The notes under the pieces were generated by a model, which did no database searches, was not told the origin of the DNA, and saw nothing but the letters and a program-made list of their open reading frames with translations. A DNA stretch of 45,288 nt from Candidatus Tectomicrobia bacterium RIFCSPLOWO2_12_FULL_69_37 (GTDB taxonomy: Bacteria > UBA8248), in the NCBI GenBank assembly GCA_001790955.1, contig MGDP01000220.1, positions 1-45,288 of the forward strand, read 5' to 3'. Within the stretch, counting starts at the first letter, position 1. Each line of letters begins with the position of its first letter. Shown here piece by piece: positions 1,416-34,895 of the stretch. Both the position numbers and the translations under genes were made by a program.

Positions 1416-1470
1416 CCGTGGGGCGAGGCATGACTTCGGCGAGCTCAGTTGAGCCGCCTCGCCCCTGCGG
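1416..1470. repeat. REP-like palindrome interrupted by a 24-bp insert (1433-1456)
   Basis: ggggcgaggcatg[acttcggcgagctcagttgagccg]cctcgcccc; removing the insert restores a perfect 22-bp palindrome. Confidence 0.8.
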
Positions 1471-17236: not shown

Positions 17237-17296
17237 CTTGATCGCCGCCCCAGCGGACGCCATGATCGCGCTCGCCTCCTCCGAGGGACGGACGCG

Positions 17297-18232
17297 ATGC
17301 CAGGCCCCCTGGATCCGATCGAGCGCGAGCTGGCCGCCATCCAGGCCGACCGCGAGAGCGGCTCGGCCCAGCTCGCCGGGCGCGCCCTGGAGCTCCTGGG
17401 CCGGGCCTGCGGCGCGGCCGGCGGCCAGAGCCCGGAGGCCCTCCTCTCCGGGATGGCCGCCCTCGCCCGGCGCATCCGCGCCCTGCGCCCCTCGATGGCA
17501 GCGCCCGGCAACTGGGCCGCCGCCTTCGTGCTCGACCTGCGCGAGCGGCTGGCCTCCTCCCCTCCCTCCCCGCGGGAGGCGGGCCGGGCGGCCGCCGAGG
17601 CCCTCCTGGCCAGGCTGCGCGGCCTCCCCGGGCGGCTGGCCCAGGCGGCGAGGCCCATCCTGGAGGGCAGGCGCGCCCTCCTCACCCTCAGCCGCTCCTC
17701 CAGCGTCGAGGCCGTCCTCCTGCAAGCCGCCCCGGCGGACTGCCTCCTCATCGTCGCCGAGTCCCGCCCCCTGTACGAGGGGCGCACGCTCCTCCGCCGC
17801 CTCATGGAGGCGGGGAGGCCCGTCCGCTGCATCACCGACGCCCAGATCGCCCTCGCCATGGGGGAGGCCGACCTCCTCCTCCTCGGGGCCGACACCGTCT
17901 GCCGCGACGCCGCCGCCGTGAACAAGGCGGGCAGCCGCCTCGCCGCCCTCGCCGCGCGCTCCCTCGGGAAGCCCTGCGCCGTCCTGGCCGACACCTTCAA
18001 GGTGAGCGGGGAGCTCTCCGCCGCCGGCGTCGTCCTGGAAGAAGGGGAGGGCCGGGAGGTCTGGGCGGAAGCGCCCGGGATCTGCCGGAACGTCTACTTC
18101 GAGCCCGTGCCGGCCGATCTCATCACCTTCTTCGTCACCGAAAAGGGCTCCCTCTCCCCGCGGGAGGTGCGCGCGGAGGCCGAGCGCTGGAGGCGCCTGG
18201 CCGGGGAGGCGGACGAGATCGGCTCGCTCTAA
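17297..18232 (+). CDS. eIF-2B alpha/beta/delta family protein (MtnA/ribose-1,5-bisphosphate isomerase-like fold)
   Basis: DRESGS, RPSMAA, TLSRSSSV, VAESRPLYEG, ITDAQ, LGADTV, VNKAGS, ADTFK, NVYFEPVP. Confidence 0.85.
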   Translation: MPGPLDPIERELAAIQADRESGSAQLAGRALELLGRACGAAGGQSPEALLSGMAALARRIRALRPSMAAPGNWAAAFVLDLRERLASSPPSPREAGRAAAEALLARLRGLPGRLAQAARPILEGRRALLTLSRSSSVEAVLLQAAPADCLLIVAESRPLYEGRTLLRRLMEAGRPVRCITDAQIALAMGEADLLLLGADTVCRDAAAVNKAGSRLAALAARSLGKPCAVLADTFKVSGELSAAGVVLEEGEGREVWAEAPGICRNVYFEPVPADLITFFVTEKGSLSPREVRAEAERWRRLAGEADEIGSL

Positions 18233-18255
18233 CGTTGCCCGGATGGTGAATGCCT

Positions 18256-18351
18256 GTAGGGGCGAACCTTGTGTTCGCCCTGGGTGGGCGTCAGCCCGGA
18301 GAGGGCGATGACGGCTCGGCTGAGCTCGCCGAAGTCAAGCATCGCCCCTAC
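18256..18351. repeat. REP/inverted-REP pair (BIME-like); second REP carries the 24-bp insert (18312-18335)
   Basis: gtaggggcgaaccttgtgttcgccc ... gggcgatga[cggctcggctgagctcgccgaagt]caagcatcgcccctac. Confidence 0.8.
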
Positions 18352-18436
18352 GGAATTCCGCTCCTCCCTCGCGTTTCCATCCCCGCGCGCTTCCCTTAAA
18401 GTGATAGGGCGTAGTCAAGCCCTCTACAGGGAGTAC

Positions 18437-21400: not shown

Positions 21401-22267
21401 TTCGCCCCGGCCCTCGAAATTCTCTTCCCGGATGCCGGGACCCTCATCACCCCGGCCTTCCCCGCCGCCACCAACATGGGCCTCCTCACCCTCCAGCGGC
21501 TGCGGAGCCTCCTCCTGGGCGCCCTGGGCCTCGCGGCGCGCGGCCGGGCGCCCGCCGACCAGGAGGGCGCCCCGTGGTGGGGGCTCAGGGGGCGGGACCG
21601 GCGGGGCCGGTTCTTCCTCTTCCGCGAGCCCCTGGGCGGCGGCACGGGGGCGGGGACGGAGGGGGACGGGGCGGACGGGGTGCTCCTCTTCCCCGCCGGC
21701 GCGGCCCTCTGGACGGAGGAGACGGAGGAGGAGTTCCCGCTGCGGGTGGAGCGCTTCGCCCTGGCGGAGGACTCGGGCGGCGCGGGGAGGTGGAGGGGCG
21801 GGCTCGGCCTGGTGAAGGACGTCCGCGTGCTCTGCGACTGCGAGGTGTTCGCCCTGGCCGACCGGGCCTTTCTCCCCCCCTGGGGGGTGAACGGGGGCCG
21901 GCCGGGAGGGCGCTTCAGCATCACCTCCAACCCGGGCACCCCGGTGGCGCGCGAGGCGCCCGCCTTCGGCGCCGGGCTCCTCCTCCGGGAGGGGGACCTC
22001 CTCCGCGTCGCGGCCGCGGGCGGGGGCGGCTGGGGCGACCCCGCCGAGCGCGAGCCCGAGCGGGTGCGGGAGGACGTGCTCGCGGGCAAGGTGAGCGCGG
22101 ACCAGGCCCTGCGCCACTACGGCGTGGTGCTGAACCCGGTCACCCAGCGGGTGGACCCCCCGGGCACCTCCGCCTTCCGGCAGTTCATGCGCGCGCGGCG
22201 GGGGCGGCTCCCCTTCTTCGACCGGGGGCCCAACTACACCTCGATCCAGGGCCAGGGCGGGGGTTGA
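18437..22267 (+). CDS. fused hydantoinase A/B (5-oxoprolinase-like) protein with degenerate motifs
   Basis: HyuA-like CLLHS.ANPAHE, SGPAGG, GPLCYGRGG, LVAYGGAGPL, IEGPA; HyuB-like HHEDLGG, FQEG..IPP, DSGGAGRWRGG, GGGGWGDPAER. ATG 18437 follows an agggag RBS. Confidence 0.85.
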   Translation: MRRMPPQGSLRVGLDHGQGFVHALALRTGDGALFSALAPIGAGDPARASALAIQRLLEQAGAVPGDISTLIHSSSAAAGAFAEREPLPLGLIVTAGFPLLPQWDGRAPGEGSGLPFHLAPPGRAVEVGGRMDPEGKEIAPLDEEDVRAAAGQFQERGVEAAGVCLLHSPANPAHEEKVRDIFREAYPACRLTLSWGMPGREQARARAALLDAACGLLLRRALGEAAVRAAESPRPDTAILLLRSDGSAIPARKGLGQPLASALSGPAGGLFAAASLARAARIRRAVALDAGSASAKISLIEDGVLLLVSEEGVDGGTKLPGVEVACLPAGGFTAAWGAKGAAGLRPRRVPGETGPLCYGRGGKEASLLDALCVLGWLPGALAGGTLALDRALAEEGLRALGAGPPEAAAWEILQAAQRAIAGAIREATAGAGKNPGDYALVAYGGAGPLLGPGAAAELGMTEVVVPPLPAWFGAAGLLDPDRRNEYARPLGLTLREESAGELDRRFRELEREAEEDLETAGIPRDSWLFLRAADMHYRGDPWRMRIDFPPAASFSSSMEAAITAFHEVFRYQYGSDRRDRLPVEISRLRLTALGKVEGGARPSPPLKKGPGAGPAGDREAFAARGEKRSYAIYQRQELAPGDRIEGPAFIEDAGSTALLPPLSSAEVDAAGNLRIQLPSREEDPRLLEDLVAGALAGAERETESLLRRSSRSRYAGGMGLCGAAFFDRRGRKLTGRPVAASVLPLIESGAAKDLAADNLLFWNDAYLGGSLGRPAEVCCCAAVRHRGELAGFFLLSAHHEDLGGVSAGSFSATASQAFQEGVIIPPLKLWEEGRWNETALGLLLRNSRKREDLAADLEAQAAAARRGAARMAEAMERLGAESFLGAIEGLLERSRRSAEEALAALPDGAWSMEDHVESDGVDPGRVHTLRLKLSKGNGRLRLDLRGTASQARGPINWPAQRDGGAFLRMWLAPVLQRLAKSEDAWNEGFAPALEILFPDAGTLITPAFPAATNMGLLTLQRLRSLLLGALGLAARGRAPADQEGAPWWGLRGRDRRGRFFLFREPLGGGTGAGTEGDGADGVLLFPAGAALWTEETEEEFPLRVERFALAEDSGGAGRWRGGLGLVKDVRVLCDCEVFALADRAFLPPWGVNGGRPGGRFSITSNPGTPVAREAPAFGAGLLLREGDLLRVAAAGGGGWGDPAEREPERVREDVLAGKVSADQALRHYGVVLNPVTQRVDPPGTSAFRQFMRARRGRLPFFDRGPNYTSIQGQGGG

Positions 22268-22432
22268 GCCAAACGGTCCCGGCTGAGTCATTCTGCCTAC
22301 AGGTCCGGAATCCCTCCTGCCAGTTCGCCACGGGACGGCAATAGCGGCAAAACCTCTCTGGTTTTCCGGTATTCAGTCTCTTATTTTTCAGTAACTTATG
22401 GATCTCTCCCTGAGAAATTTTCTCCTCGCCAT

Positions 22433-22448
22433 CGGCACATGCTTTGCT
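22433..22448 (+). promoter_or_regulatory. putative sigma-54 (-24/-12) promoter of the DASS transporter
   Basis: cGGCACatgctTTGCt matches TGGCAC-N5-TTGCW with exact GG-N10-GC spacing, 53 bp upstream of the ATG; IHF-like site at 22386-22398. Confidence 0.7.
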
Positions 22449-22501
22449 GTCTCTCCCCTTGTCGGCCGAGGTCTGCTCTCGCCGCAGGAAGGAGAACAAC
22501 C

Positions 22502-23992
22502 ATGGCGACTTTCATGGAAAAGGAACCCAAGGTCACCCGGAGGGAACCCTCTCCCCCCGCTCCCTCGATCCCAGAGGAGAAGCCCAGGGACTACCTTTGG
22601 CTCCGCTACTTGATCCCCATCGCGGTCGGGCTGGCGATCTGGTTCTCGCCCGCCCCGGCGGGCGTCAGCGCGAAGGGCTGGCACCTGGTGGCGATCTTCG
22701 TGGCGACCATCGTGGGGATCATCTCCCAGCCCCTGCCCATGGGCGCGGTGGCCATCATCGGCATCGCCCTCTGCGCCCTGACGCGCACCCTCTCCATCGG
22801 CGAATCGCTGAGCGGCTTCGCCGACACCACCATCTGGCTGATCGTGGCGGCCTTCATGTTCGCCCGCGGCTTCATCAAGACTGGCCTGGGGAGCCGGATC
22901 GCCTACCTCTTCATCGCGGCCTTCGGCAAGAAGAGCCTGGGCCTCGGCTACAGCCTCGCGGCCACGGACTTGGTGCTGGCCCCCGCCATGCCGAGCAACA
23001 CCGCCCGCGCGGGGGGCGTGGTCTACCCGGTGCTGCGCTCCATCGCGCGCGCCTACGGGAGCGAGCCCGACAACGGAACGGCCCGCAAGCTCGGCGCCTT
23101 CCTGGTCAAGAACTCCTTCCAGGCCACGATCATCACCAGCGCCATGTTCATGACCGCGATGGCCGCGAACCCGCTCGTGGTCAAGCTGGCGGGGCAGCAG
23201 GGCCTAAAGCTGGACTGGGTGAGCTGGGCCCTGGCGGGGATCGTACCGGGCCTGGCGAGCCTCGCGCTGGTGCCCTGGCTCCTCTACAAGGTCTACCCGC
23301 CTGAGATCAAGGAAACGCCCGGCGCCGTCACGTTCGCGAAGGACAGGCTGCGGGAGATGGGCCCGGTGAAGCCGGGCGAGTGGACGATGATGGGCGTCTT
23401 CACCCTCATCCTGGCGATGTGGATATTCGCTCCGCTGCTGGGCAACCTGAACGCCACCACGACCGCTCTGGCAGGCGTGGCCCTCCTGCTCATCGCGGGG
23501 GTGCTGACCTGGGGCGACGTCGAGATGGAGCGGAAGGCGTGGGACACCCTGATCTGGTTCGCCGCCCTGGTGATGATGGCCAGCTTCCTGGGCAAGCTCG
23601 GGGTCGTCGCCTGGTTCAGCAAGCAGATGGCCAGCAGCGTCAAGGGGCTCGACTGGGTCACCGCGCACATGGTGCTGGTGCTGGTCTACTTCTACGCCCA
23701 CTACATGTTCGCGAGCATGACCGCCCACATCGCGGCCATGTACGCGCCCTTCCTGATGGTCTCCATCGCGGCGGGCACGCCGCCGATGTTCGCGGCCCTG
23801 ACCCTCGCCTTCGCGAGCAGCCTCCACTCCAGCATGACCCACTACGGGACCGGCCCCGCGCCCATGTACTTCGGCTCGGGCTACGTGACGCTGGCCACCT
23901 GGTGGCGGCTGGGGCTGCTGGTCAGCGTGGTCAACATCATCGTCTGGCTGGTGGTCGGCGGCCTATGGTGGAAGGTGCTGGGCTACTGGTAG
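22502..23992 (+). CDS. DASS family dicarboxylate transporter (2-oxoglutarate/malate translocator, CitT/YflS-like)
   Basis: KTGLGSRIAY, PSNTARAGG, TSAMFMTAMAANP, HYMFASMTAH, THYGTGPAP, WWKVLG; aggaga RBS. Confidence 0.93.
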   Translation: MATFMEKEPKVTRREPSPPAPSIPEEKPRDYLWLRYLIPIAVGLAIWFSPAPAGVSAKGWHLVAIFVATIVGIISQPLPMGAVAIIGIALCALTRTLSIGESLSGFADTTIWLIVAAFMFARGFIKTGLGSRIAYLFIAAFGKKSLGLGYSLAATDLVLAPAMPSNTARAGGVVYPVLRSIARAYGSEPDNGTARKLGAFLVKNSFQATIITSAMFMTAMAANPLVVKLAGQQGLKLDWVSWALAGIVPGLASLALVPWLLYKVYPPEIKETPGAVTFAKDRLREMGPVKPGEWTMMGVFTLILAMWIFAPLLGNLNATTTALAGVALLLIAGVLTWGDVEMERKAWDTLIWFAALVMMASFLGKLGVVAWFSKQMASSVKGLDWVTAHMVLVLVYFYAHYMFASMTAHIAAMYAPFLMVSIAAGTPPMFAALTLAFASSLHSSMTHYGTGPAPMYFGSGYVTLATWWRLGLLVSVVNIIVWLVVGGLWWKVLGYW

Positions 23993-24012
23993 GCCGGGCG
24001 GCCTGAGAGAAG

Positions 24013-24048
24013 AACGGCCGGGGGCGCGGGCCCCCGGCCGTTTCATTT
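24013..24048 (+). terminator. intrinsic terminator between the convergent DASS and sdhB genes
   Basis: aacggccgggggc-gcgg-gcccccggccgtt followed by tcattt. Confidence 0.7.
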
Positions 24049-24066
24049 CGCGGCGGCGCGGTTCCG

Positions 24067-24813
24067 CTAGGCCTCCAGCACCGAGGCGCGGATGAACTCG
24101 CGGTTCATCTTCGCGATGTGGCTGATGCTGACCTCCTTGGGGCAGACGGCCTCGCACTCGGTGTGGTTGGTGCAGTTGCCGAAGCCCTCGAGGTCCATCT
24201 GGTGCACCATGCCGAGGACGCGCTGGGCCCGCTCGGGATGGCCCTGGGGCAGGTGGGCCAGGTGGGAGACCTTGGCCGCCACGAAGAGCATGGCCGAGCC
24301 GTTCGGGCAGGAGGCCACGCAGGCGCCGCAGCCGATGCAGGCGGCGGCGTCCATGGCCTTCTCCGCGTCGTCCCGGGGGACGGGGAGGGCGTTGGCGTCG
24401 GGGGCGCCACCCGCGTTGGAGGAGACGAAACCGCCCGCGTGGATGACGCGGTCGAAGGCGGTCCGGTCCACCACCAGGTCGCGGACGACGGGGAAGGCCC
24501 TCGATCGCCAGGGCTCGACCGTGATGACGTCGCCGTCCTTGAAGTGGCGCATGTGGAGCTGGCAGGTGGTGGTGGCGCGGCGGCCGCCGTGGGCCAGGCC
24601 GTTGATGACGAGCGAGCACATGCCGCAGATGCCCTCGCGGCAGTCGTGGTCGAAGGCGACGGGCTCCTCGCCCTTGGCGATCAAGCGCTCGTTCACGACG
24701 TCGAGCATCTCGAGGAAGGACATGTCGGGGCTGATGTCCTTCGCCTCGTAGCTGACGAGGCTCCCCCTCTCCTGGGCGTTCCGCTGCCGCCAGATGCGCA
24801 GGGTCAGGTTCAT
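24067..24813 (-). CDS. sdhB: succinate dehydrogenase/fumarate reductase iron-sulfur subunit
   Basis: [10 protein letters not shown]...TTC [2Fe-2S]; [11 protein letters not shown]; [12 protein letters not shown]. Start [10 protein letters not shown] overlaps the sdhA stop. Confidence 0.95.
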
Positions 24814-26726
24814 CACTTGTAGCTCCTCTCGGCAAGATGAACCGTCTCGAACTCGAGAGGCTCCTTCTGGAGGACGGGCTTCTGGCCGGGGCCCTTGTGC
24901 TCCCAGGCGCTCACGAAGCAATAGTCCTTGTCGTTGCGCTTGGCCTCGCCCTCCTCGGTCTGGTACTCGGCCCGGAGGTGGCAGCCGCAGGACTCCTCGC
25001 GGGCGAGGGCGTCGTGGCATATGAGCTCGGCCAGGTCGAGGAAGTCGGCCACCCGGCCGGCCTTTTCGAGCTCGGGGTTGAGCTCCTTGGCGCCGCCCGT
25101 AACCTTGACGTTCTCCCAGAACTCCTCGCGGATGGCCGGGACGATCTCGAGGGCCTTGGTCAGGCCCCCGCGGCTGCGCTCCATGCCGCAGTGCTCCCAC
25201 AAGACCTTGCCCAGCTCGCGGTGGAAGGAGGTCACCGAGCGCTTTCCCTTGACGGAGAGAAGTTTGCGGATGCGCTCCTGGGCCTCCTCCCCGGCCTGCC
25301 GGAACTCGGGGCGGCTCGCGGCGACGGCGCCGTACTTCTGCCCGGCGAGGTAGTTGCTCAGGGTGTAGGGGATGACGAAGTAGCCGTCCGCCAGCCCCTG
25401 CATGAGGGCGCTCGCCCCGAGGCGGTTGGCCCCGTGGTCGGAGAAGTTGGCCTCCCCCAGCACGAACAGGCCGGGGACGTTGCTCATCAGGTCGTAGTCC
25501 ACCCACAGCCCGCCCATGGCGTAGTGGACGGCCGGGTAGATGCGCATGGGCACCTGGTAGGCGTCCTCGCCGGTGATGCGCTCGTACATGTCGAAGAGGT
25601 TGCCGTAGCGCTCGCGGATGACGCCCTCGCCGAGGCGCTTGATGGCGTCCGAGAAGTCGAGATAGACGCCCAGGCCTCCCGGGCCCACTCCCTTCCCCTC
25701 GTCGCACATGCGCTTGGCGGCGCGCGAGGAGACGTCGCGGGCGGCCAGGTTGCCGTAGGCGGGGTAGATCCGCTCGAGGTAGTAGTCGCGGTCCTCCTCG
25801 GGGACCTGCCGGGGGTCCCGCTTGTCCCCCGCCCTCTTGGGCACCCAGATGCGCCCGTCGTTCCGCAGCGACTCGGACATGAGGGTGAGCTTCGACTGGT
25901 GCTCGCCCGTGACGGGGATGCAGGTGGGATGGATCTGGGTGAAGCAGGGGTTGGCGAAGAGCGCCCCCTTGCGGTAGGCGCGGTAGATGGCGGTGACGTT
26001 GTTGCCCATCGCGTTCGTGGAAAGGTAGAACACGGGCGCGTAGCCGCCGGTGGCGAGGACCACGGCGTCGGCGGCGAAGGTCTCGATCGCCCCCGTCACC
26101 AGATCCCGGGTCACGATGCCCTTGGCGTGGCCGTCCACGACGACGAGCTCCTGCATCTCGGTGCGCGGGTGCATCGTGACGGTCTTGGCCGCGATCTGGC
26201 GGCACAACTCCGCGTACACGCCGAGGAGGAGCTGCTGGCCGGTCTGGCCCCGGGCGTAGAAGGTGCGCGACACCTGGGCGCCGCCGAAGGAGCGGTTGGC
26301 GAGCTGGCCGCCGTACTCGCGGGCGAAGGGCACGCCCATGGCGACGCACTGGTCGATGATGGCCGCGCTCAGCTGGGCGAGGCGGTAGACGTTCCCCTCG
26401 CGGGAGCGGAAGTCGCCCCCCTTCATGGTGTCGTAGAAAAGGCGGTAGACGCTGTCGCCGTCGTTCTGGTAGTTCTTCGCGGCGTTGATGCCGCCCTGGG
26501 CCGCGATGCTATGGGCGCGGCGGGGGCTGTCCTGGAAGCAGAAGCAGTCCACCCGGTAGCCCATCTCGCCCAGGGTGGCCGCGGCGGCCCCGCCGGCCAG
26601 GCCCGAACCCACCACGATGACCCGGTAGCGCCGCTTGTTGGCGGGGTTGACCAGCCGCATCTCGTTGCGGCGCTTGTCCCACTTCGACTCGATGGGCCCG
26701 GAGGGGACTTTGGATTCGAGCTTCAT
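24813..26726 (-). CDS. sdhA: succinate dehydrogenase/fumarate reductase flavoprotein subunit
   Basis: [19 protein letters not shown] (covalent FAD His), [33 protein letters not shown]. Confidence 0.96.
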
Positions 26727-26738
26727 GTCAGCCTCCTC

Positions 26739-27416
26739 CTATTTCACGAGCCCGGCCAGGACCGCCAGGGGGATGGAGATGTAGCCGATCGCGATGACGA
26801 CGCCGGCCACGGGCCCCACCCTCTTGAAGCAGGGGTTGTAGGCCGGATGGTTGAGGCCCACCGTCTGGAAGAAGCTCGTGAGGCCGTGGCTGAGGTGGAA
26901 CCCGAGGAGAATCATCGCCACGATGTAGACGCCCGAGACCGCCGCGTTCGAGAAGCCGAGGACCATCATCCGGTACACGTCCGGCAGGCCCTTCGGATCC
27001 ATCAGCTTGAGGTACTCGGGGTTCGTCGCCCCGAGGGTGAAGTGCATGAGGTGGTAGACGACGTAGGCGAGGATCAGGAGGCCGCTCATGACGATGGTGC
27101 GGCCGGCGTAGGTGGTCACGAGATGGGCCTCGACGGCGTAGGGCTCGGGCCGGGCGGCCCGGTTCAGCCGCCAGAGCCGGAGCGCCGAGCCCACGTGGGC
27201 CAGGAAGACGACCAGGAGCACGACGCGGACCACCCACAGGAGGGCGCCCAGGTCGCGGAGCTTGTGGGCGTAGCCGTTGAGGGAGTCCCGGCCGGCGAAC
27301 ACGAGGAGGTTCCCCAGCAAGTGGCCGATCACGAAGCCGAACAGGAGGAGGCCGGTGACGGCCATCACCTGCTTGGCCCCGATGGAGGTCTGGCACAACC
27401 GCGCGAACCGGCTCAT
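26739..27416 (-). CDS. sdhC: succinate dehydrogenase cytochrome b subunit (single large anchor, b558 type)
   Basis: SIGAKQVMAVTG, HLLGNL, YHLMHF, HLSHG; about five TM helices; first gene of the CAB operon with RBS before MSRF. Confidence 0.9.
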   Translation of the reverse strand: MSRFARLCQTSIGAKQVMAVTGLLLFGFVIGHLLGNLLVFAGRDSLNGYAHKLRDLGALLWVVRVVLLVVFLAHVGSALRLWRLNRAARPEPYAVEAHLVTTYAGRTIVMSGLLILAYVVYHLMHFTLGATNPEYLKLMDPKGLPDVYRMMVLGFSNAAVSGVYIVAMILLGFHLSHGLTSFFQTVGLNHPAYNPCFKRVGPVAGVVIAIGYISIPLAVLAGLVK

Positions 27417-27680
27417 CCCCTCCCTCCCTCGGCCGAGAAGAATCCAGCGAAGGCGCCCACAGAGCCCACGGCGGGCCAATGTAATCCCAGCCACCCGAGC
27501 GGTCAACCGCGGGAGCCCTCTCCGGCCCGTGTCCACGATGGGCCGTCATGCACCCGCGAGAAACGGGTTGCCCTCTCCAACCCAGGGTAGTACTATCTTT
27601 TTAGTTGGCTCTCCCGTTTTGATACCAAGGAAAGGCTCGGTCTTCCGGCCTCACCGGCAGCCAAGGGGGATTTCTGCGCC

Positions 27681-28505
27681 CTAGGGCGCCTCGTTCAAGT
27701 CCCAGTCGTACCCGTGGTCCGCGATGCGGGAGAACTTCGCGAGCCGAGCGGCCAGATGAGGCGAGGCATAGCGGCGCAGGTGGGCGAGGACCCCAGCGTC
27801 GCTCCCGCCGAAGTCCTCCGCGTACCAGTGGTAGATGCTGGAGACGACGGGGCCGTACTCCGTCAGGCGGACGCCCCGGGGATGATTCACGTAGGCCCGC
27901 GCCCCCTCGGTGAGCATGGCGTCCGCCGTCCCGGCCGTGAAGGGCGCGGGGGCGAGGTTGGGGCAGCCGACCGAGGCGCAGTTCACGGCATAGTGGATGC
28001 GCGGGTCCCGCCAGATGGGCCGCAGGATGCGGTGCTCGATGTCGTCCAGGCTCAGCGCCTCCCCCTCCACCCGGACGAGCTTCTTCCCCCAGGGCCCCAC
28101 CGCGAACCAGCCGGGCGAGATGTTGATCCGCAGGATGGTGTTCACGGGGTGGTGGCCGAGGATCACCTGGACGGTCAGGGCGTTGTAGAGGTTGATCCAG
28201 TAGGCGAGCTGCTCGGGACGGCTCAGGAGGCTCACGGCCATCCCGCTCAGGCGCTGGACGTAGCCCGAGAGCGCCTGCCTGTCCCCGGGCGCGACGCCGC
28301 CGTAGCGCACCCGGTTCACTCCGTCTCCGCCGCGCACGAGGTACTTGGAGAGGAACCTTCCCCACTCGGCGTGGTCCACCCGGACGGCCGAGGCAGGGTC
28401 ATGGGCCAGCCAGCGCTCCCAGAGCTCCGCCTTGGGCACGGCCCAGGCGGGCGGGGCCAGTGCAAGGCAGAAAGCCAGAATCCCCAAGGCCGGCCGACGT
28501 CGCAT
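27681..28505 (-). CDS. secreted DUF547 domain protein
   Basis: Signal peptide; LAYWINLYNA, SLDDIEHRILR, DPRIHYAVNCASVGCP, YDWDLNE. Confidence 0.88.
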   Translation of the reverse strand: MRRRPALGILAFCLALAPPAWAVPKAELWERWLAHDPASAVRVDHAEWGRFLSKYLVRGGDGVNRVRYGGVAPGDRQALSGYVQRLSGMAVSLLSRPEQLAYWINLYNALTVQVILGHHPVNTILRINISPGWFAVGPWGKKLVRVEGEALSLDDIEHRILRPIWRDPRIHYAVNCASVGCPNLAPAPFTAGTADAMLTEGARAYVNHPRGVRLTEYGPVVSSIYHWYAEDFGGSDAGVLAHLRRYASPHLAARLAKFSRIADHGYDWDLNEAP

Positions 28506-28570
28506 CTCACCTCCCTCCGCGGCGAGTCCCTTCTTGCGGGAACACCCGGAGGGGGAATTTATTCGCCCCG

Positions 28571-28607
28571 AAACGAAGCGGCCGCGGCCCCGGAGGGCCG
28601 CGGCCGC
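28571..28607 (-). terminator. probable terminator downstream of the methyltransferase-ligase gene
   Basis: 13-bp perfect stem gcggccgcggccc/gggccgcggccgc with 4-nt loop; minus strand continues ttcgttt. Confidence 0.6.
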
Positions 28608-28628
28608 GGGCCGTTTGTCTTCCGGCGG

Positions 28629-30626
28629 TTACCGCCCGCTGCCGTTCATCGGCACCAGCTCCCCGGCCGCCTCCTCCTTGCGCTCGGCCGGCAGGGCGTC
28701 GAGGCCCAGGCGCTGCTCGGCCGCCCGGAGGATGGCCTCGAGCATCCCGGCGTAGGGGACGCCGGCGAACTTGGCCATCTTGGCCAGGTGGCCGTCCCAG
28801 CACCAGCCGGGGTTGGGGTTCACCTCGAGGAGCTTGGGGTTCCCCTCGCCGTCCAGGCGCCAGTCGAAGCGGGCGTAGTCCCGGCAGCCCAGCCGCTCGA
28901 AGAGCTTGAGGCAGGCGTCCACCATCCGCTTCTCGGTGACGTCGGGGAGGCTGGCGGGGATGGAGCGCAGCCGGGCGTAGGGTGAGTCCGGGTCCCACTT
29001 GGCCTCGTAGCCGCAGATGCGGGGCAGGTCCTCGGGCAGCTCCGAGTAGTCTTCCTCGCTGACGGGGAAGACGGTGTAGGAGACGCCCGGGTTGCCGATG
29101 ACGCCCACCGTCAGGTCCGAGCCGGCCAGGAACTCCTCCGCCAGGATGGGCTTCTCGTAGCCGTACTTGCGGTGGAGCTCGGTGACCACGTTGAGGAGCT
29201 CCTCGTGGTCGTGCACCACACTCCGCTGGGTGATGCCGAAGCTGGAGTCGCCGAAGTTGGGCTTTACGATGGCCGGGAAGGCGAAGGGCATCTCGTAGGT
29301 GGACTCGCCCGGCCTGATGAAGAAGGCCTCCGGAACGGGGATGCCCATCTCCTGCGCGATGCCGCGCACCAGCGACTTGTCGTAGCAGTAGGCGAGGCAC
29401 TGCGGGCCCGCCCCCGTGAAGGGGATGCCCAGCGCCTCGAGCAGGGCCGGGACGTGCAGCTCCTTCAGGGGGTCGTTCCCCAGCCCCTCGTCGCAGAGGT
29501 TCAGCACGAAGTCGGCCTTCCCCTTCAGCTTGCCGAGCTCGCCGATGAGGGAGTCGTGGTTGGAGAGGTAGAGGAAGTGGTACTCCTTCAGCTCCCGGAG
29601 GGCCGCCTTCATCTGGTCGATGGTGTAGAGGTCGTCCTCGTCGAAGACGGCGGCCGGCTTGACGATGTCCTGCTTGGCCGGGTCGCCCATCACCACCGCC
29701 ACGGTGCGGACGGCCTCCTTGGGGCGCTTGCGGACGGGGGTCCACTCCTTGCGGGCCACCGCGGCGAGGATGATGCGCCGCTCCATCATCCCCAGGTCCT
29801 GGTTGCGCTGGGAGCCGGTGGCGATCTCCCCGTGGACGACGGCGTCGTGGAACCCGGCCGCCTTGAGCAGCTCGGCCAGCTCCGCCCGGCTGTAGAGCCG
29901 CTCGGCGTAGAACTGGTCCACCAGCACCCCCTTCTCGACGTGGGTCACCACCTCGCGGGAGATGAGCCGGTGGCCGTCCGCCGAGAGGGCGCGCTCGCGG
30001 CAGACGAAGTACTTGTCGTCCAGCCACTCCCAGGAGCGGGGCTGGAAGTGCTCCCGGAGGTACTCCCCGTCCGAGACGTCGATGAGGAGCTTGCCCCAGG
30101 GCTTGAGCACCCTGCACACCCCCTGGAGGACCTTCAGGTCCTCGTTGGCGGTCTCGAAGTAGCCGAAGCTGTTGCCCAGGATGAGGGCCGCGTCGAAGGT
30201 GTCCGGCGGGTAGGAGAACTTGCGGGCGTCCCCCTCGCGGAACTTGACCGGGAGGCCCTCCTTCTTGGCGATGCTCTTGGCCTTCTGGATGAGGAAGTGG
30301 GAGCGGTCAAGCCCCTCCACCCCCCGGAAGCCCCGGCGGGCCAGCTCCAAGGCGTGGCGGCCCTGGCCGCAGCAGAGGTCGAGGATCCTGTCTTCGGGGG
30401 AAATCCGGAGAACTTGGGCGAAATGCTCGACTTCCTGGCGGGTGATGCCCGGGTCGGCGACGACGTCGGAGTCGGTCTTGAGATAGAAGGAGTTGAAGAT
30501 CCCCCGCCACCATTCGGGCGGGACGTGCTCCTCCAGGTTGGCGACGGGGCCGAGCGCGCGCTTGCGGTGCTTGCCGTTCTTGGCGGGAGCGGCGGACTTT
30601 CCTGGTGCCGGCGGTTTGTCGCTCAT
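28629..30626 (-). CDS. class I SAM-dependent methyltransferase fused to D-Ala-D-Ala-ligase-like ATP-grasp domain
   Basis: ILDLCCGQGRH, GNSFGYF; ATP-grasp IPFTGA, YDKS, IVKPNFGDSSFGI, EEFL, YARFDWR, LEVNPNPG. Start MSDKPP at 30626. Confidence 0.88.
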   Translation of the reverse strand: MSDKPPAPGKSAAPAKNGKHRKRALGPVANLEEHVPPEWWRGIFNSFYLKTDSDVVADPGITRQEVEHFAQVLRISPEDRILDLCCGQGRHALELARRGFRGVEGLDRSHFLIQKAKSIAKKEGLPVKFREGDARKFSYPPDTFDAALILGNSFGYFETANEDLKVLQGVCRVLKPWGKLLIDVSDGEYLREHFQPRSWEWLDDKYFVCRERALSADGHRLISREVVTHVEKGVLVDQFYAERLYSRAELAELLKAAGFHDAVVHGEIATGSQRNQDLGMMERRIILAAVARKEWTPVRKRPKEAVRTVAVVMGDPAKQDIVKPAAVFDEDDLYTIDQMKAALRELKEYHFLYLSNHDSLIGELGKLKGKADFVLNLCDEGLGNDPLKELHVPALLEALGIPFTGAGPQCLAYCYDKSLVRGIAQEMGIPVPEAFFIRPGESTYEMPFAFPAIVKPNFGDSSFGITQRSVVHDHEELLNVVTELHRKYGYEKPILAEEFLAGSDLTVGVIGNPGVSYTVFPVSEEDYSELPEDLPRICGYEAKWDPDSPYARLRSIPASLPDVTEKRMVDACLKLFERLGCRDYARFDWRLDGEGNPKLLEVNPNPGWCWDGHLAKMAKFAGVPYAGMLEAILRAAEQRLGLDALPAERKEEAAGELVPMNGSGR

Positions 30627-30838
30627 CCTTTCCTTTCCCCCCCTCCGTGCTTCATATGGATACGGGCGGAAACGAGCTTGGGGGGCGTCTCCCCCCGCGC
30701 CCCGCGCACCGTCCGACCCCCACGGCGGACGGCCTTCCGGGGCCGATGGCGCAAATGTAGCCCAAACCACGGATTTTGCACTAAGTTTTTTGCCCCGCCC
30801 GCAAAAAACTTGGGGCCGGGGAAAGGCGGGGCGGGGGG

Positions 30839-31816
30839 CTACTTCTCCTCCCCCCTCCCGAACCGCTCGAGGCCCCGGCGGAACTTGACGCAGGGGTCCT
30901 CGCGGGGATGGGGGGCGGTGAACCAAAGGGCGTCGTAGGCCCCCGGGCGGGGCAGGTAGGCTTCGGGCCGGCGCTTCTCCGGGCGGACCTCGGCGAAGGC
31001 CAGGGCGAACTGCCCGGCCTCGGGCATGAGAGAGGCGAGATCGGGCGGGATGCCCGCGGCCCGGTCGGCGTGGCCCGCCCCCGTGATGAGCACCGCCCCA
31101 TCCGCCTTTCCCCGCGGGGCCCGCAGGGCGCGGGCGAGGGAGAGGGCTATCATCCGGTTCCGGGCCCGCCAGGCCTCGTAGAGCCCCCCCAGCCTCTCCT
31201 TCGGGATGACCCGGCAGTGGGACTCGTAGAACTCCTCCAGCATGGCCGCCCGCCGCGCCGGGTCGGGGGGCCCGAGGGCCAGCTCCTTGGCGAGGGGGGC
31301 CGGAAGCTCCCCCAGCCCCCGCCGGGCCACCTTCGCCGCCAGCTCGCGCGGGAGGTCGGTCGCCAGGACGGGGAGCCCGGCCCGGTGGGCGGCCTCGACG
31401 AGCGGGGCGTAGAGGGACCAGTCCGGCCACCCCCGGCGCCGCCAGCCCGTCACCTCGGGGATTTTGGAGAGGTCGGCCCGGGGATCGGCCAGGAGCTTGG
31501 CGAGGGCGGGGGCCGCGTCGGTGGTGAACATCTCGAAGCCCAGCGCGGGCCTCCGCCCGCGATCCAGGAGGGCGATGTAGGTCCTGGCCTGGAGCTGGTG
31601 GTGGACCGGGTTGTCGTGGACCTCCCCCAGGTAGACGACCCGGGCCTGGACCATCCACTTCCAGAGGGCCTCCTCGGCCAGGAACCCTCCCCTCCACCAG
31701 ATGCGGCCGAGGAGGGGGTGCTTCTCCTCCCCGGCCCCCAGGGCGGCGGCCGCCCCGCTCAAGGCGAAGACGGCCAGAAGCGCACAGGCCAGAAGGAGGG
31801 GAGGACGTTTCTCCAT
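30839..31816 (-). CDS. ChaN family (haem/iron-uptake associated, DUF399-like) exported protein
   Basis: Signal peptide; VYLGEVHDNPVHHQLQ, LGFEMF, WPDWSLYAPL, SHC, ITGAGHA. Confidence 0.82.
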   Translation of the reverse strand: MEKRPPLLLACALLAVFALSGAAAALGAGEEKHPLLGRIWWRGGFLAEEALWKWMVQARVVYLGEVHDNPVHHQLQARTYIALLDRGRRPALGFEMFTTDAAPALAKLLADPRADLSKIPEVTGWRRRGWPDWSLYAPLVEAAHRAGLPVLATDLPRELAAKVARRGLGELPAPLAKELALGPPDPARRAAMLEEFYESHCRVIPKERLGGLYEAWRARNRMIALSLARALRAPRGKADGAVLITGAGHADRAAGIPPDLASLMPEAGQFALAFAEVRPEKRRPEAYLPRPGAYDALWFTAPHPREDPCVKFRRGLERFGRGEEK

Positions 31817-31898
31817 CAGGGGCAAGGCGTCACCTCGGAGAAGGCGGGCTCGGCAGGGCGGCCGGGAGGGAGTATATTCCGCCCCGAGGAGGAAAGGG

Positions 31899-32411
31899 AT
31901 GCTCCGGATCGACCCCATGACGAGCGGCGCGGACCTCGAAACCGCCCGGGAGCTTCTCGGCGAGTATGCCCGGCTGCGCGACGTCTTCACCTGCTTCGAC
32001 CGGGCCGGGCGCCACCACAAGGAGATGACCGAGCTGCGGGAGCTCTACAGCCCCCCCTCGGGCGCCTTCTTCCTCGCCCGGGAGGAGGGCCGGCCCGCCG
32101 GCTGCATCGGCCTCCGGGACCTGGGCGGCGGCGTCTGCGAGATGAAGCGCCTCTACGTGCGGGACGCCTTCCGGGGCCGGGGCATCGGCCGCAGGCTCGC
32201 CGAGCGCCTCGTCGGGGAGGCCCGGCGGATGGGCTTCCGCCTCATGCGGCTCGACTCCCTCGCCTGGATGAGGGAGGCCCACGCCCTCTACCGCTCCATG
32301 GGCTTCCGCGAGATCCCGGCCTACCACGACCGGGGCCAGCCGGGGGAGATCTTCATGGAGCTGGACCTCGGGGTCCCGGCGCCCCGGCCCGCGTCCGCCC
32401 CCTTGGCCTAG
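31899..32411 (+). CDS. GNAT family N-acetyltransferase
   Basis: GCIGLR, CEMKRLYV, RGRGIGRRL (acetyl-CoA motif A), LYRSMGF; RBS gaggagg. Confidence 0.92.
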   Translation: MLRIDPMTSGADLETARELLGEYARLRDVFTCFDRAGRHHKEMTELRELYSPPSGAFFLAREEGRPAGCIGLRDLGGGVCEMKRLYVRDAFRGRGIGRRLAERLVGEARRMGFRLMRLDSLAWMREAHALYRSMGFREIPAYHDRGQPGEIFMELDLGVPAPRPASAPLA

Positions 32412-32827
32412 CCCCTCGCCCCCAGGGCCCGGGCCGCCGCCCGCTGGTCCTTGGGCTTCACCCAGAAGATGAGGGCGAAGCGCTGCTTCCCGGCGCAGAG
32501 ACCCGTCACGGCCGTCACGTTGATCTTGGCCGCGCCCAGCTTGGCCATGACCCCCGCCAGCGCCCCCGCCCGGTCGCTCCCCTGGACCAGGAAGGCCTTC
32601 TTCTTCGCGCTGACCCGCAGCCGGGCCCCGCGCGCCGCCCGCAGGAAGGCCGAGTTCTTGGCCGGCACGAAGTCCACCTGCACCCGGTTCTTCCCTGCCG
32701 GGAAGGCGTGGACGGCGAGGAAGCTCACCCCCGCCTTGCGGAAGGGGTCGAGCATCTTCGCCCCGGCCCCGGGCTTGTCGGTCGAGGTGATGTAGAAGTA
32801 GTCCACCGTCTTGATCAGGTCGGCCAT
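32408..32827 (-). CDS. small protein with tandem ACT-like domains
   Basis: TDKPGAGAKML...GVS and SDRAGALAGVMAKLGAAKINV, typical ACT patterns; RBS aggaga. Confidence 0.75.
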   Translation of the reverse strand: MADLIKTVDYFYITSTDKPGAGAKMLDPFRKAGVSFLAVHAFPAGKNRVQVDFVPAKNSAFLRAARGARLRVSAKKKAFLVQGSDRAGALAGVMAKLGAAKINVTAVTGLCAGKQRFALIFWVKPKDQRAAARALGARG

Positions 32828-33120
32828 GATCGGTCTCCTTCTCGCTCAGGGCGGGCGCACGGCAGGTCTTTCCGCCAATATACGCCCTCGCGTCCCATCG
32901 CGCAGGAAAGCCTCGCCAGGGAAAGCGCGGCCCCCCCCTTCCCGGCCCGTGCCCCGCGGCCCTGGCGCCGCCCTCCCGGGCGCCGCCTTTTTCCTGCCGG
33001 AATATCCCGGAAATTCCCGGAAAGCCCCAGACGCCCGGGCCTTTTCGCCGGCGCGGCCTTTTCTCGCGCGAACGCCCGCTCAAACGGTGGACATCCCCTC
33101 AAGGACCTCGATCCAGGGAT

Positions 33121-33242
33121 GTCGGGGGCGAACCTCGCGTCCGCCCGGTCCAGCCGCTGGCGGGAGGGAGCGAATACGGCTCGGCTGAGCCTTCGGCCCG
33201 GGCTCAGGCCGAGGGCTCGCCGAAGTCGAGGTTCGCCCCTAC
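33121..33242. repeat. REP/inverted-REP pair with doubly nested mini-insertions
   Basis: gggggcgaacctcgcgtccgccc ... gcgaata[cggctcggctgag{ccttcggcccgggctcaggccgaggg}ctcgccgaagt]cgaggttcgcccctac. Confidence 0.8.
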
Positions 33243-33422
33243 AGGCGAGGCGAGCCGCCACCCCGCCGCCGGAGAGGATACCCCCCGCCTCCCGAGAGCT
33301 CCTACCTCAATTTCGCGCAGGTTCCGGGAAATCGAAACGAATCCCGGGAAAAAAAGCATGTGCTAAAATGACGCCAACCATTGCCTTCGGAAGCCGGCAT
33401 GGCCCCTGCAGGGGAACCCGAG

Positions 33423-34895
33423 ATGGAGCATCGTCCCGTTGAGCGCAGACTGGCCGCCATCCTCTCTGCCGACGTCTCCGGTTACAGCCGCCTCATGGGA
33501 GAGGACGACGAGGCGACGCTGCGCACCCTGAGCGAATACCGGGAGCTTCAATTCTACCTGATCGGCCATTACCGGGGCCGGGTGGTCAACGCCCCGGGGG
33601 ACGCCCTCCTGGCCGAATTCTCCAGCGTGATCGATGCGGTGACCTGCGCCGTGGAGATCCAAAAGGCCCTCGCCGAGCGCAACGACCGGCTGCCCGAGAA
33701 CCGCCGCATGGAGTTCCGCATCGGGGTCCACCTGGGCGACGTGCTGGTCAAGGAGGGGGCCCTCTACGGAGACGGCGTCAACATCGCGGCCCGGCTGGAG
33801 GGCCTGGCCGACGGGAGGGGGATCTGCATCTCCCGGGCGGTTTACGAACAGGTCGGGAAGAAGCTCGACTGCGAGCTGGAATACCTGGGCGAGTACCTGG
33901 TCAAGAACATCGCCGAGCCGGTCGAGGTGTACGGCGTCCGGGTGTTCCCGGAGGATCGCGCCCCGCGCCGCAGGCGCCGCGCACTTACGGTGTGGCAGGG
34001 AGCGGTCCTCGGAACAGCCGCAGTCCTCCTGATCCAGGGCGCGGCGTGGTGGTTTTGGAAGGACGACCTGGCCTTCCATCTGCGCGAGTCGCCCGCCAAG
34101 CCCGGCCTGACCGGGGAGCTCCGGGCGCGCCTCGCCGTGAAGCCCCTCCCCGGCGATCTTTCCTCCGGCAAGACGTTCCGGCATTGCGGGGACTGCCCCG
34201 AGATGGCTGTGATCCCGCCGGGGAGCTTCACCATGGGCTCCGCGCCGGACGAGAAGGAACACCGCCCCGAGGAAGGCCCTGCGAGGCTCGTGGCCATCCC
34301 CAAGGCGTTCGCGATGGCGCGATTCGAGACGACTTTCGCCCAATGGGACGCGTGCGTGGCCGACAGCGGCTGCGCCCACGTGCCCCAGGACAGGGGCTGG
34401 GGCCGGGGCAACATGCCCGCCATCTACGTCCATTGGCAGGACGCGCAGGACTACGTCAAATGGCTGACCCGCCGCACCGGGCGGACCTACCGCCTTCCCT
34501 CCGAGGCGGAGTGGGAGTACGCGGCGCGCGCGGGTTCGCAGGCCTCATTTTGGTGGGGGAAGGAACTGAAGCCCGACCAAGCGAACTGCGACCGGTGCGG
34601 CAGGAATCCCTCCCGGCAGACCGCCCCCGTGGGCTCGTTCCCGCCCAACCCCTTCGGCCTGTTCGACATGCACGGCAACGTCTGGGAGTGGACCGCCGAT
34701 TGCTGGAACGGCACCCTCGCCGGGGCCCCCTCCGGCGGCGAGGCCTGGACCTCCGGGCAATGCGATCTCCGCGTCCTGCGCGGGGGCGCCTGGGGGCTCG
34801 CGCAGGAGAGCATCCGCGCCGCCCGCCGCATTCCGGGCAAGCTGGATGCCCGCAGCGGAAAGCAAGGCTTCCGCGTGGCGATGACCTTGCCCTGA
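33423..34895 (+). CDS. class III adenylate/guanylate cyclase - TM - FGE-sulfatase (SUMF1/EgtB-like) domain protein
   Basis: RRLAAILSADVSGYSRLM, GDA, RIGVHLGDV, GDGVNIAARLE; one TM; CPEM..IPPGSFTMGS, RLPSEAEWEYAARAG, NPFGLFDMHGNVWEW, RGG, GFRV. Confidence 0.9.
   Translation: MEHRPVERRLAAILSADVSGYSRLMGEDDEATLRTLSEYRELQFYLIGHYRGRVVNAPGDALLAEFSSVIDAVTCAVEIQKALAERNDRLPENRRMEFRIGVHLGDVLVKEGALYGDGVNIAARLEGLADGRGICISRAVYEQVGKKLDCELEYLGEYLVKNIAEPVEVYGVRVFPEDRAPRRRRRALTVWQGAVLGTAAVLLIQGAAWWFWKDDLAFHLRESPAKPGLTGELRARLAVKPLPGDLSSGKTFRHCGDCPEMAVIPPGSFTMGSAPDEKEHRPEEGPARLVAIPKAFAMARFETTFAQWDACVADSGCAHVPQDRGWGRGNMPAIYVHWQDAQDYVKWLTRRTGRTYRLPSEAEWEYAARAGSQASFWWGKELKPDQANCDRCGRNPSRQTAPVGSFPPNPFGLFDMHGNVWEWTADCWNGTLAGAPSGGEAWTSGQCDLRVLRGGAWGLAQESIRAARRIPGKLDARSGKQGFRVAMTLP

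Follow-up and report, generated by a model that had tools for sequence, protein, structure and literature searches.

Repeats of 21-27 nucleotides (nt) named SDR1-8 were reportedly described by Elhai in 2008, in Genome Res 18:1484. In the accessible portions of PMC4390886 and PMC5861425 the SDRs appear under the title 'very small mobile repeated elements' and are reported from Nostocaceae only, and one of them, SDR5, inserts precisely inside the HIP1 palindrome, between nt 3 and 4. Other short hairpins are known as well. The accessible part of Di Nocera, De Gregorio and Rocco (2013; PMC3733652) describes GTAG-3 and GTAG-14, repetitive extragenic palindromic (REP) sequences with long self-complementary loops of up to 27 bp, and mentions Rickettsia palindromic elements (RPE) and intragenic REPs, palindromic repeats located in frame in coding genes. 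SRM/NTS repeats are ~30-nt hairpins with a near-identical consensus across distant bacteria, and the part of Chenal et al. (2025; PMC11893778) available to us explains their spread by a cognate, co-occurring gene for an Ssn GIY-YIG single-stranded DNA (ssDNA) nuclease, which is flanked by the repeats. The subject of this work is a nested repeat at positions 33121-33242 of contig MGDP01000220.1 of Candidatus Tectomicrobia bacterium RIFCSPLOWO2_12_FULL_69_37. This whole stretch of 45,288 nt is called the window here; it is contig C220 of its genome, G000. At this site a 26-mer, gamma (CCTTCGGCCCGAGCTCAGGCCGAGGG; the window copy reads ccttcggcccgggctcaggccgaggg), interrupts a 24-mer, alpha (CGGCTCGRCTGAGCTCGCCGAAGT; the intact window copy reads CGGCTCGGCTGAGCTCGCCGAAGT), which in turn is located in the loop of a REP. 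Our main result is that one exact 24-mer, alpha, occurs at tens to more than a hundred copies in genomes of many phyla.

Scanning of a collection with one genome per species has found the exact 24-mer at no fewer than 117 loci. Phylum labels, about 13 in number, were taken from the 80 matches listed, among which are Planctomycetota (several orders), Chloroflexota, Nitrospirota, Nitrospinota, Verrucomicrobiota, Acidobacteriota, Latescibacterota, Bdellovibrionota, Desulfobacterota, Ignavibacteriales, Sumerlaeota, Omnitrophota and one metagenome-assembled genome of Promethearchaeota; the last match is a 4-kb contig and could be mis-binned. The alpha-bearing matches include megabase-scale contigs and two records named 'chromosome: 1' (6.2 and 6.6 Mb). 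Five genomes were reached from the exact loci and are named here by the labels of the corresponding records. With up to two mismatches allowed, alpha was counted 117 times in Planctomycetota (G031), 70 times in Ca. Amarolinea (G033), 55 times in Phycisphaerales (G035), 45 times in Nitrospira (G034) and three times in Latescibacterota (G032), and the reversed control pattern gave 0. The flanks of alpha in different phyla are unrelated and some of them are AT-rich (e.g., L109). Two forms of the element, A8 and G8, are each found in more than one phylum, as is a linked form, T10C+A22G.

In two short contigs, L095 and L123, binned to different phyla (Bryobacteraceae and Tepidisphaeraceae, respectively), the 55 nt to the left and to the right of alpha are the same; they probably represent one organism binned twice, which calls for caution with the phylum counts. 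Among IMG/VR viral contigs alpha is found at 14 loci in 13 contigs, too few to suggest a phage vector. A search of plasmids gave no strong alpha match. Its one weak match (E 0.2) is a diverged three-level nest on plasmid pAQ6 of Picosynechococcus sp. PCC 7002 (NC_010480.1, 65098-65150; L387), composed of an outer CGTTCGACTGAG...CTCATGTCGAAGCC, then an alpha-like and then a gamma-like element, and located between WYL-domain and pentapeptide-repeat genes. The host of this plasmid is a cultured, transformable cyanobacterium.

The original prediction, made from the letters of the window, regarded such elements as parasites of REPs. The window's genome and 30 relatives were scanned for alpha (up to two mismatches) and for a 28-nt REP, with a reversed-pattern control giving 0 everywhere. 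There are 22 alphas and 104 REPs of this type in G000; the corresponding numbers are 2 and 192 in G001, 6 and 41 in G002, 32 and 134 in G003, 4 and 16 in G008, 23 and 0 in G005, and 24 (22 of them perfect) and 0 in G019. The other 24 genomes have no alpha. Since G005 and G019 are rich in alpha but lack this REP, while G001 is rich in the REP and alpha is rare there, alpha is uncoupled from the 28-nt REP and the term "REP parasite" is too narrow. In G019 alpha occupies the loop of another kind of REP (GTAGCGCCGCCGTC|alpha|CGGCGGC), and is also found at non-palindromic, probably coding sites and inside itself: a second CGGCTCGA precedes alpha in 6 of 21 rows, and a second CTGAGCTCGCCGAAGT follows it in three rows and in one more at a contig end.

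Alpha is a discrete, precisely bounded insertion. G001, which belongs to the same genus and is ~80% identical here, has an orthologous REP doublet between the same genes, and its right REP, ...GGGGATGA|CAAGCATCGCCCCTAC (GATGA|CAAGCATCGCCCCTAC), equals the window sequence minus exactly the 24 nt of 18312-18335. Coding sequences are affected as well, alpha being exactly eight codons long and, as read from its sequence, stop-free in five of six reading frames. An open reading frame (ORF) for a conserved hypothetical protein of 472 aa contains alpha in frame, encoding TSASSAEP (G000:C209:2128-2151; L048:1669-3087). Its G003 orthologue has 48 nt at the same point, namely alpha inside alpha in the same orientation (16+[24]+8), the inner copy being of a different sequence subtype and differing from the outer one at several positions. 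The orthologues in G008 and G005 have no element, and that in G001 has an unrelated linker sequence. In a DnaJ-like gene (G000:C224:13878-13901; L047:637-1758) alpha is in frame after the J domain and encodes FGELSRAG; the orthologues found by tblastn in G001 and G003 are without alpha, the left junction GGGGACGG being kept. Another alpha encodes ASASSAEP near the C-terminus of a 180-aa protein (G000:C210:17180-17203), which by eye looks NYN/YacP-like.

Similar presence/absence was found within a genome. A ~250-nt multi-hairpin repeat of the Nitrospira genome G034 (L201-L210) has three alpha slots, which are filled or precisely empty among copies; the slot GGCA|CCGG, for example, holds alpha in L201 but not in L202 or L204. 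The alphas of this repeat are 69-92 nt apart and have one orientation. Empty, filled and doubly filled sites, which the original prediction proposed to count, have thus been found among paralogues and orthologues, and its idea of mobile elements of ~25 nt entering hairpin loops and their own kind is supported; as insertions they are discrete and precisely bounded. We also observed two long ORFs (810 and 958 aa) in L213 and L214 of G033, each with two alphas.

Direct reading of the focal site confirmed its predicted structure base for base. The pieces CGGCTCGGCTGAG and CTCGCCGAAGT together make up the 24-mer that is intact elsewhere in the window, and they are parted between GAG and CTC by gamma. 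When both inserts are excised, the minus strand reads GTAGGGGCGAACCTCG|TATTCGCTCCC, a type-B GTAG-tagged REP, which opposes a degenerate partner REP; their 13-nt arms (33125-33137 and 33227-33239) are 100% complementary. The noted resemblance of the inner piece to the reverse complement of the outer one is real, as both are imperfect palindromes centred on GAG|CTC with the arms CTTCGGC / GCCGAG. Folded as DNA, gamma alone gives -7.3 kcal/mol with a 9-bp stem, and the alpha+gamma 50-mer is a strong hairpin of -19.2 kcal/mol, with z of -3.3 and -4.5 on the two strands. The segment 18256-18351 repeats the focal layout with an uninterrupted alpha. Coordinates of these features are given in Table 1.

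Table 1. REP doublets and mini-elements of the window.
Feature	Position	Strand	Basis or remark
Left REP of inverted REP doublet, type B, degenerate head GTCGGGGGCGAACCTCGCGTCCGCCC	33121..33146	+	Inverted repeat, 13 nt, to 33227-33239
Right REP, distal half (TATTCGCTCCC on minus strand)	33166..33176	-	With 33227-33242 rebuilds type-B REP after 50-nt excision
Alpha, left 13 nt, CGGCTCGGCTGAG	33177..33189	+	Sequence reading
Gamma 26-mer, 9-bp-stem hairpin in GAG|CTC of alpha	33190..33215	+	Sequence, copies, DNA fold
Alpha, right 11 nt, CTCGCCGAAGT, then invariant C at 33227	33216..33226	+	28/28 uninterrupted genome copies precede C
Right REP, head half (GTAGGGGCGAACCTCG on minus strand)	33227..33242	-	Sequence, inverted repeat
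Left REP, second inverted doublet	18256..18280	+	Kept at orthologous G001 site
Right REP, distal half, second doublet	18303..18311	-	Sequence, G001 orthologue
Intact alpha in right REP loop	18312..18335	+	Precise empty G001 allele GGGGATGA|CAAGCATCGCCCCTAC
Right REP, head half, second doublet (GTAGGGGCGATGCTTG on minus strand)	18336..18351	-	Sequence, G001 orthologue
Third alpha, 1 mismatch, in palindromic type-A REP of AGGCATGCCT subfamily (about 1420-1468)	1433..1456	-	Pattern scan

The host genome (3.30 Mb, 69% G+C, 228 contigs) is rich in GTAG-tagged REPs. Its palindromic 28-mer REPs were counted as GTAGGGGCG-N10-CGCCCCTAC with up to one mismatch, and their stem subfamilies have the cores AGGCATGCCT (26 copies), ACCGGCCGGT (11), TTCCATGGAA (10), TATTGCAATA (10), CACGGCCGTG (8) and GGTTT[G/C]AAACC (13). 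Type-B REPs within four substitutions of the consensus number 47. In the window the 24-mer with up to two mismatches is present in two copies against 0.00 expected, and none of 100 shuffles reaches two. When up to three substitutions are allowed, the genome has 28 uninterrupted alpha-like 24-mers, all 28 directly followed by C. Eighteen of them are located in type-A REP loops, three in C-run/G-run palindromes and six elsewhere; the classifier places at least one in a type-B REP loop, and inspection by eye gives three for this class, the interrupted focal copy included. Type-A REPs with exact heads are empty in 137 cases, contain alpha in 12 and alpha with gamma in one. Filled REPs of at least five stem subfamilies equal the empty form plus exactly 24 nt, e.g., GTATTG|alpha|CAATAC.

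A sister form of alpha, called beta here (...CTGAGCTCGTCGCAGG), was observed in the loops of C-run/G-run palindromes (CCCTCCC...GGGAGGG) of G000 at C60:4118, C74, C86:8055, C126, C201:5714, C51 and C46:5081. These palindromes seem to lie within a larger repeat holding CCCCACCCT...CCCTCCCCCGG. Partial alphas are also present in this genome: the first 8 nt, CGGCTCGA, are doubled at C205:3975 and C40:12345, giving a 32-nt form, and the last 16 nt are doubled at C155:13785. They might have arisen by self-nesting with a later deletion, or be products of slippage.

Gamma is not restricted to the focal site. G000 has five copies of it (C64, C115, C150, C205 and the window; the reversed control gave 0), and all five are inside an alpha-like element at GAG|CTC, with none free-standing. 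With up to three mismatches in the core, gamma is found 5 times in G000, 8 times in G003, 10 times in G005 and 4 times in G019; single 3-mismatch rows in G004, G015 and G020 look like chance. The arrangement of the nest depends on the genome. It is CGGCTCGRCTGAG|gamma|CTCGCCGAAGT with gamma in the '+' orientation in all five cases in G000, and ACTTCGGCGAG|gamma|CTCAGTCGAGCCG with gamma in the '-' orientation in all four in G019, and G003 has both orientations, at least two nests being of the G000 type and three of the G019 type. In G005 the junction is two bases off (CTG|..|AGCTC) in all ten copies, extra alphas are located in the arm of the outer element (L038-L040), and one nest is multi-level (L029).

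Public metagenome contigs contain the exact 26-mer at a minimum of 119 loci, and in only 3 of the 119 listed is it inside alpha, which argues that gamma moves on its own. The gammas listed are mostly hosted by other mini-palindromes centred on GAG|CTC or by a GTCAACCCT... element. In L106 alpha is inside a gamma-like element, so the nesting order is reversible. A REP of G001 (C27; ~3170-3210 of locus L003), GTAGGGACGACCGG-CCTTCAGCCGG-CCGGCCGCCCCTAC, was observed to have an 11-nt loop insert resembling the start of gamma; to judge by this resemblance, it may be an internally deleted gamma located directly in a REP.

The sites of insertion have clear sequence preferences. Alpha is followed by C (position +1) at 112 of 113 unique cross-phylum sites and preceded by A or G (position -1) at 98 of them; its target is a purine|C junction. 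Of 102 unique gamma sites, 100 have G at position -1 and 85 have C at position +1, the consensus being TGAG|CTCA. Flush palindromes of at least 6 bp surround 17% of the 113 alpha sites versus 3.7% when the flanks are re-paired; loops are therefore favoured about 4.6-fold, yet they are not required. The original idea that these elements target loops thus holds as far as enrichment is concerned but does not hold as a rule, as the share of flush palindromes is low and some copies are in genes. Gamma does enter its own kind, but a loop alone does not describe its target, which is the motif TGAG|CTCA.

The length of each insertion is exactly that of the element, with no target duplication beyond a 1-nt ambiguity, which arises because the element starts with C and C comes after it. 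Orientation is fixed in asymmetric hosts, both in the type-B REPs of G000 (3/3) and in the GTAGCGCC REPs of G019. As the motif preferred by gamma is also the centre of its own family, this preference explains the nesting. Each element bears the favoured target of the family at its own centre or loop, which allows nesting in either order.

Alpha and gamma form one superfamily of gene-less, GAG|CTC-centred imperfect palindromes, which are among the smallest mobile DNAs. Successive insertions of such mini-elements, moved in trans by an enzyme, are the likely explanation of the focal site. An inverted pair of GTAG-type REPs would have been present at the start, alpha would then have entered the loop of the right REP, and gamma would have entered alpha at its central GAG|CTC. 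We infer that a trans-acting enzyme reads nearly the whole 24-26 nt and copies or moves the elements, which would also explain their letter-perfect conservation across phyla. Such an enzyme would probably act on ssDNA and be HUH-like (similar to those of IS200/IS605, to the REP-associated tyrosine transposase (RAYT) or to Helitron enzymes), inserting beside a short motif without duplication. HUH enzymes of these three kinds place their DNA beside a short motif and leave no duplication. A single-strand transposition route is described in the accessible part of PMC6006769.

Several observations weigh against this explanation, the searches for a mobilising enzyme in the first place: those for Y1, Y2, small GIY-YIG and inter-alpha ORFs found none. 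The original prediction suggested a RAYT/IS200-like gene flanked by the motifs, but Y1_Tnp (PF01797) has 0 matches in G000, with the control genomes responding; as this genome is 91.6% complete, the absence of RAYT is not proven. Matches to PF01797 are present in 9 of the 31 genomes. In the window's family they are weak partial matches of 22-25 bits, confined to G003, G015 and G018 (3 of the 18 other family-f1 genomes), and strong matches are confined to more distant genomes. In five carriers belonging to other phyla, 12 Y1 loci out of 37 matches were examined, and none has an alpha-, beta- or gamma-like sequence within ~1.5 kb. Small GIY-YIG genes (PF01541) are present in G000, G001, G003, G005 and G019, and at 0 of 6 loci do their flanks contain alpha, beta or gamma. 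PF04986 (Y2) had no match, with control genomes equally silent, which makes this search uninformative. ORFs between close alpha pairs in G000 and in G033/G035 include no candidate enzyme, those of G033/G035 having been listed only, without a Pfam scan.

Further points of this kind concern the sites themselves. The focal insert 33177-33226 has no orthologous empty allele in G001, G002 or G003: in G002 the spacer is ~250 nt shorter, the entire REP doublet being absent, and collinearity with the window is absent here in G001 and G003. Orthology is also uninformative for the alpha at 1433-1456, as G001 has the neighbouring REP without the filled one and G003 is without both. No read-level polymorphism was found at the focal site in a comparison based on Logan contigs, which drop rare variants. 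None of the 15 contig joints listed, of 70 in all, is located at the focal site, which has no bearing on rare alleles. In addition, alpha by itself folds into a weak hairpin as ssDNA (z -0.3 to -1.0) and most cross-phylum alpha sites are outside clear palindromes; the single-stranded, loop-targeting part of the mechanism is for this reason something we infer. Finally, all five alpha+gamma copies of G000 have gamma in the same orientation relative to alpha, which may mean that the 50-mer moves as a unit in this genome.

This last point leads to the strongest competitor of successive insertion, that a ready-made alpha+gamma 50-mer entered the REP loop in a single event. Besides the orientation, the five composites of G000 share their junction, and the other fixed junction, found in all ten G005 copies, suggests that composites multiply as units. 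However, the outer halves of the G000 composites carry both A8 and G8 variants of alpha, both relative orientations exist in relatives, and exact gamma is rarely found inside alpha in the metagenome loci listed. A single event can be considered possible, though rather unlikely.

Alpha and gamma could also have a function, as sites recognised by a conserved host protein or as motifs at the RNA level, and owe their spread to selection and not to selfish mobility. Letter-perfect conservation across phyla is unusual for selfish DNA, and a linked T10C+A22G form of alpha, with 13 copies in three genomes (4 in G003, 1 in G019 and 8 in G033), would keep the 10-22 base pair. However, unrelated proteins contain copies in frame, other copies are nested in one another and in further repeats, and no Rfam family was matched: a search of 33000-33400 with E up to 10 gave microRNA and lncRNA rows at chance level only. 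As a functional site would still need an insertion mechanism, function is an addition to mobility and not an alternative to it, and as a full explanation it is improbable.

That nested palindromes grow where they stand, through slippage of replication or a switch of template at hairpins and with no mobile element, is more improbable still. The partial alphas of G000 and the B'B'A'A' forms of G019 could be understood in this way, but local templating cannot set an identical 24-mer in unrelated flanks of many phyla, AT-rich ones included. The inner and outer alphas of the G003 nest differ at several positions, so this nest is not a fresh duplication.

The long forms could alternatively be loop-length variants of REPs, as in GTAG-3 and GTAG-14, spreading only with their REP. 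The form CGGTTCGG..CACCGAAGC is present in three copies, each of them in a REP of the GGGTTT subfamily, which means that some filled REPs do multiply as units. As a general account this is hardly credible, since at least five REP stem subfamilies, type-B REPs, C-run/G-run palindromes and ORFs all contain the same 24-mer, which is also present across phyla and in genomes lacking these REPs, and the orthologous REP of G001 is short by exactly 24 nt. The weakest explanation is that the focal nest is an assembly or sequencing artefact, a possibility named at the outset. It has practically nothing left to it, and an assembly artefact is excluded: the nest is rich in repeats and run X1 has contig breaks at 33136/33138, but a 624-nt contig of the independent run X5, a run without the mark of a possible source, spans 32959-33582 with 0 gaps and 2 differing letters, the element is present in megabase-scale contigs and in the chromosome records, and its presence/absence tracks orthology.

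Some observations around the focal site are independent of these questions. Palindromic motifs of the TTCCCGGAA type are located at 33002-33023, 33311-33332 and 33341-33350, on both sides of the REP doublet, and one pair of them is kept in the orthologous G002 spacer; they may form a regulator binding site. A hammerhead-like reading of CUGAG..GAAG..UC was dropped after inspection by eye, as the core GA is absent. In four runs the summed contig depth over 24000-27000 of the window is 10-50x that of the rest of 17000-34500, with many variant letters; this segment is conserved or multi-copy and common to other organisms in the samples.

Returning to successive insertion, we can place it in a broader picture, in which alpha, gamma and their kin would be pan-bacterial, self-nesting mobile DNAs of 24-27 nt, the smallest known so far, each kept letter-perfect across more than ten phyla by an undescribed ssDNA enzyme that reads the whole element and is either horizontally spread or housekeeping. 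They would insert at R|C or TGAG|CTCA without duplication, prefer REP loops, tRNA-like loops and their own centres, and add 8-residue patches to proteins of uncultured bacteria. This picture is tentative, and we rate its chance as a little short of even.

If the elements are mobile, the lower size limit of mobile DNA outside cyanobacteria is 24 nt, one exact sequence can reach copy numbers between tens and more than a hundred per genome, from Planctomycetota to Nitrospirota, and an unknown sequence-specific DNA-processing activity, probably single-strand, is to be expected. Enzymes of this kind are wanted as tools, the Ssn family being a recent example. The elements reshape hairpins, REPs among them, that play a part in termination and mRNA stability, and give 8-residue patches to proteins such as the DnaJ-like, the NYN/YacP-like and the conserved hypothetical one. 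They break metagenome assemblies at repeats and at the same time constitute clean presence/absence markers for strain and species history. The self-targeting GAG|CTC centre is a simple rule for the origin of nested repeats.

The literature searched, with most subscription journals outside it, contains neither the 24-mer nor its 17-nt cores, and no description of nested or loop insertions in REPs or palindromic elements was found there. Among known systems, IS200/IS605 'peel and paste' elements work in a similar way, with no duplication and oriented insertion beside a short fixed motif, a likeness of action and not of membership; a cognate Y1 transposase gene associated with alpha or gamma was found neither in G000 nor at the 12 Y1 loci examined in other carriers. 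Insertion sequences aimed at REP/BIME hairpins, such as IS1397 (see also Tobes and Pareja, 2006) and the IS110/IS621 bridge-RNA elements, also enter the loop or centre of REPs, but they are kilobase-sized and encode their own transposases, whereas alpha and gamma have 24-26 nt and encode nothing. Miniature inverted-repeat transposable elements measure 70-300 bp, with terminal inverted repeats of an insertion sequence and a target-site duplication; alpha and gamma, as predicted, are far smaller, and their ambiguity does not exceed 1 nt.

Alpha and gamma resemble REPs and REPINs (Nunvar, 2010; Bertels and Rainey, 2011; Di Nocera, 2013) in being short, GC-rich, high-copy and non-autonomous hairpins. 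The REP/REPIN hosts studied here are, however, GTAG-tagged and arranged in inverted doublets, while alpha and gamma bear neither of the tags, GTAG or CGTC, that stand conserved and unpaired at one end of a 20-40-nt REP hairpin, and do not form doublets. REPs and REPINs are moved by RAYT (TnpA-REP, a Y1 HUH enzyme), whose gene is typically bordered by the repeats and has no match in G000, and alpha and gamma insert into REPs without being REPs. The GTAG-3 and GTAG-14 families are similar to the focal site in that short- and long-loop forms of one REP family coexist; in the accessible part of PMC3733652 their loops are treated as variants, whereas alpha is an independent element, present outside REPs, in genes and in other phyla. 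SRMs bear a CGTC-type motif, which alpha and gamma lack, and no GIY-YIG gene with flanking alpha or gamma copies was found at the six loci mentioned. RPEs, as far as the same part of PMC3733652 describes them, are much longer and lineage-restricted, whereas alpha adds exactly eight codons.

The nearest described kind, compared by description, are the SDRs of Nostocaceae. Like them, alpha and gamma are gene-less mobile repeats of ~20-27 nt with precise presence/absence and with precise insertion inside palindromes, as in SDR5; their lengths of 24 and 26 nt and their empty alleles agree with this type. The two are set apart, by the descriptions of SDRs and not by their sequences, in that SDRs are reported from Nostocaceae only, whereas alpha and gamma are present letter for letter in many phyla.

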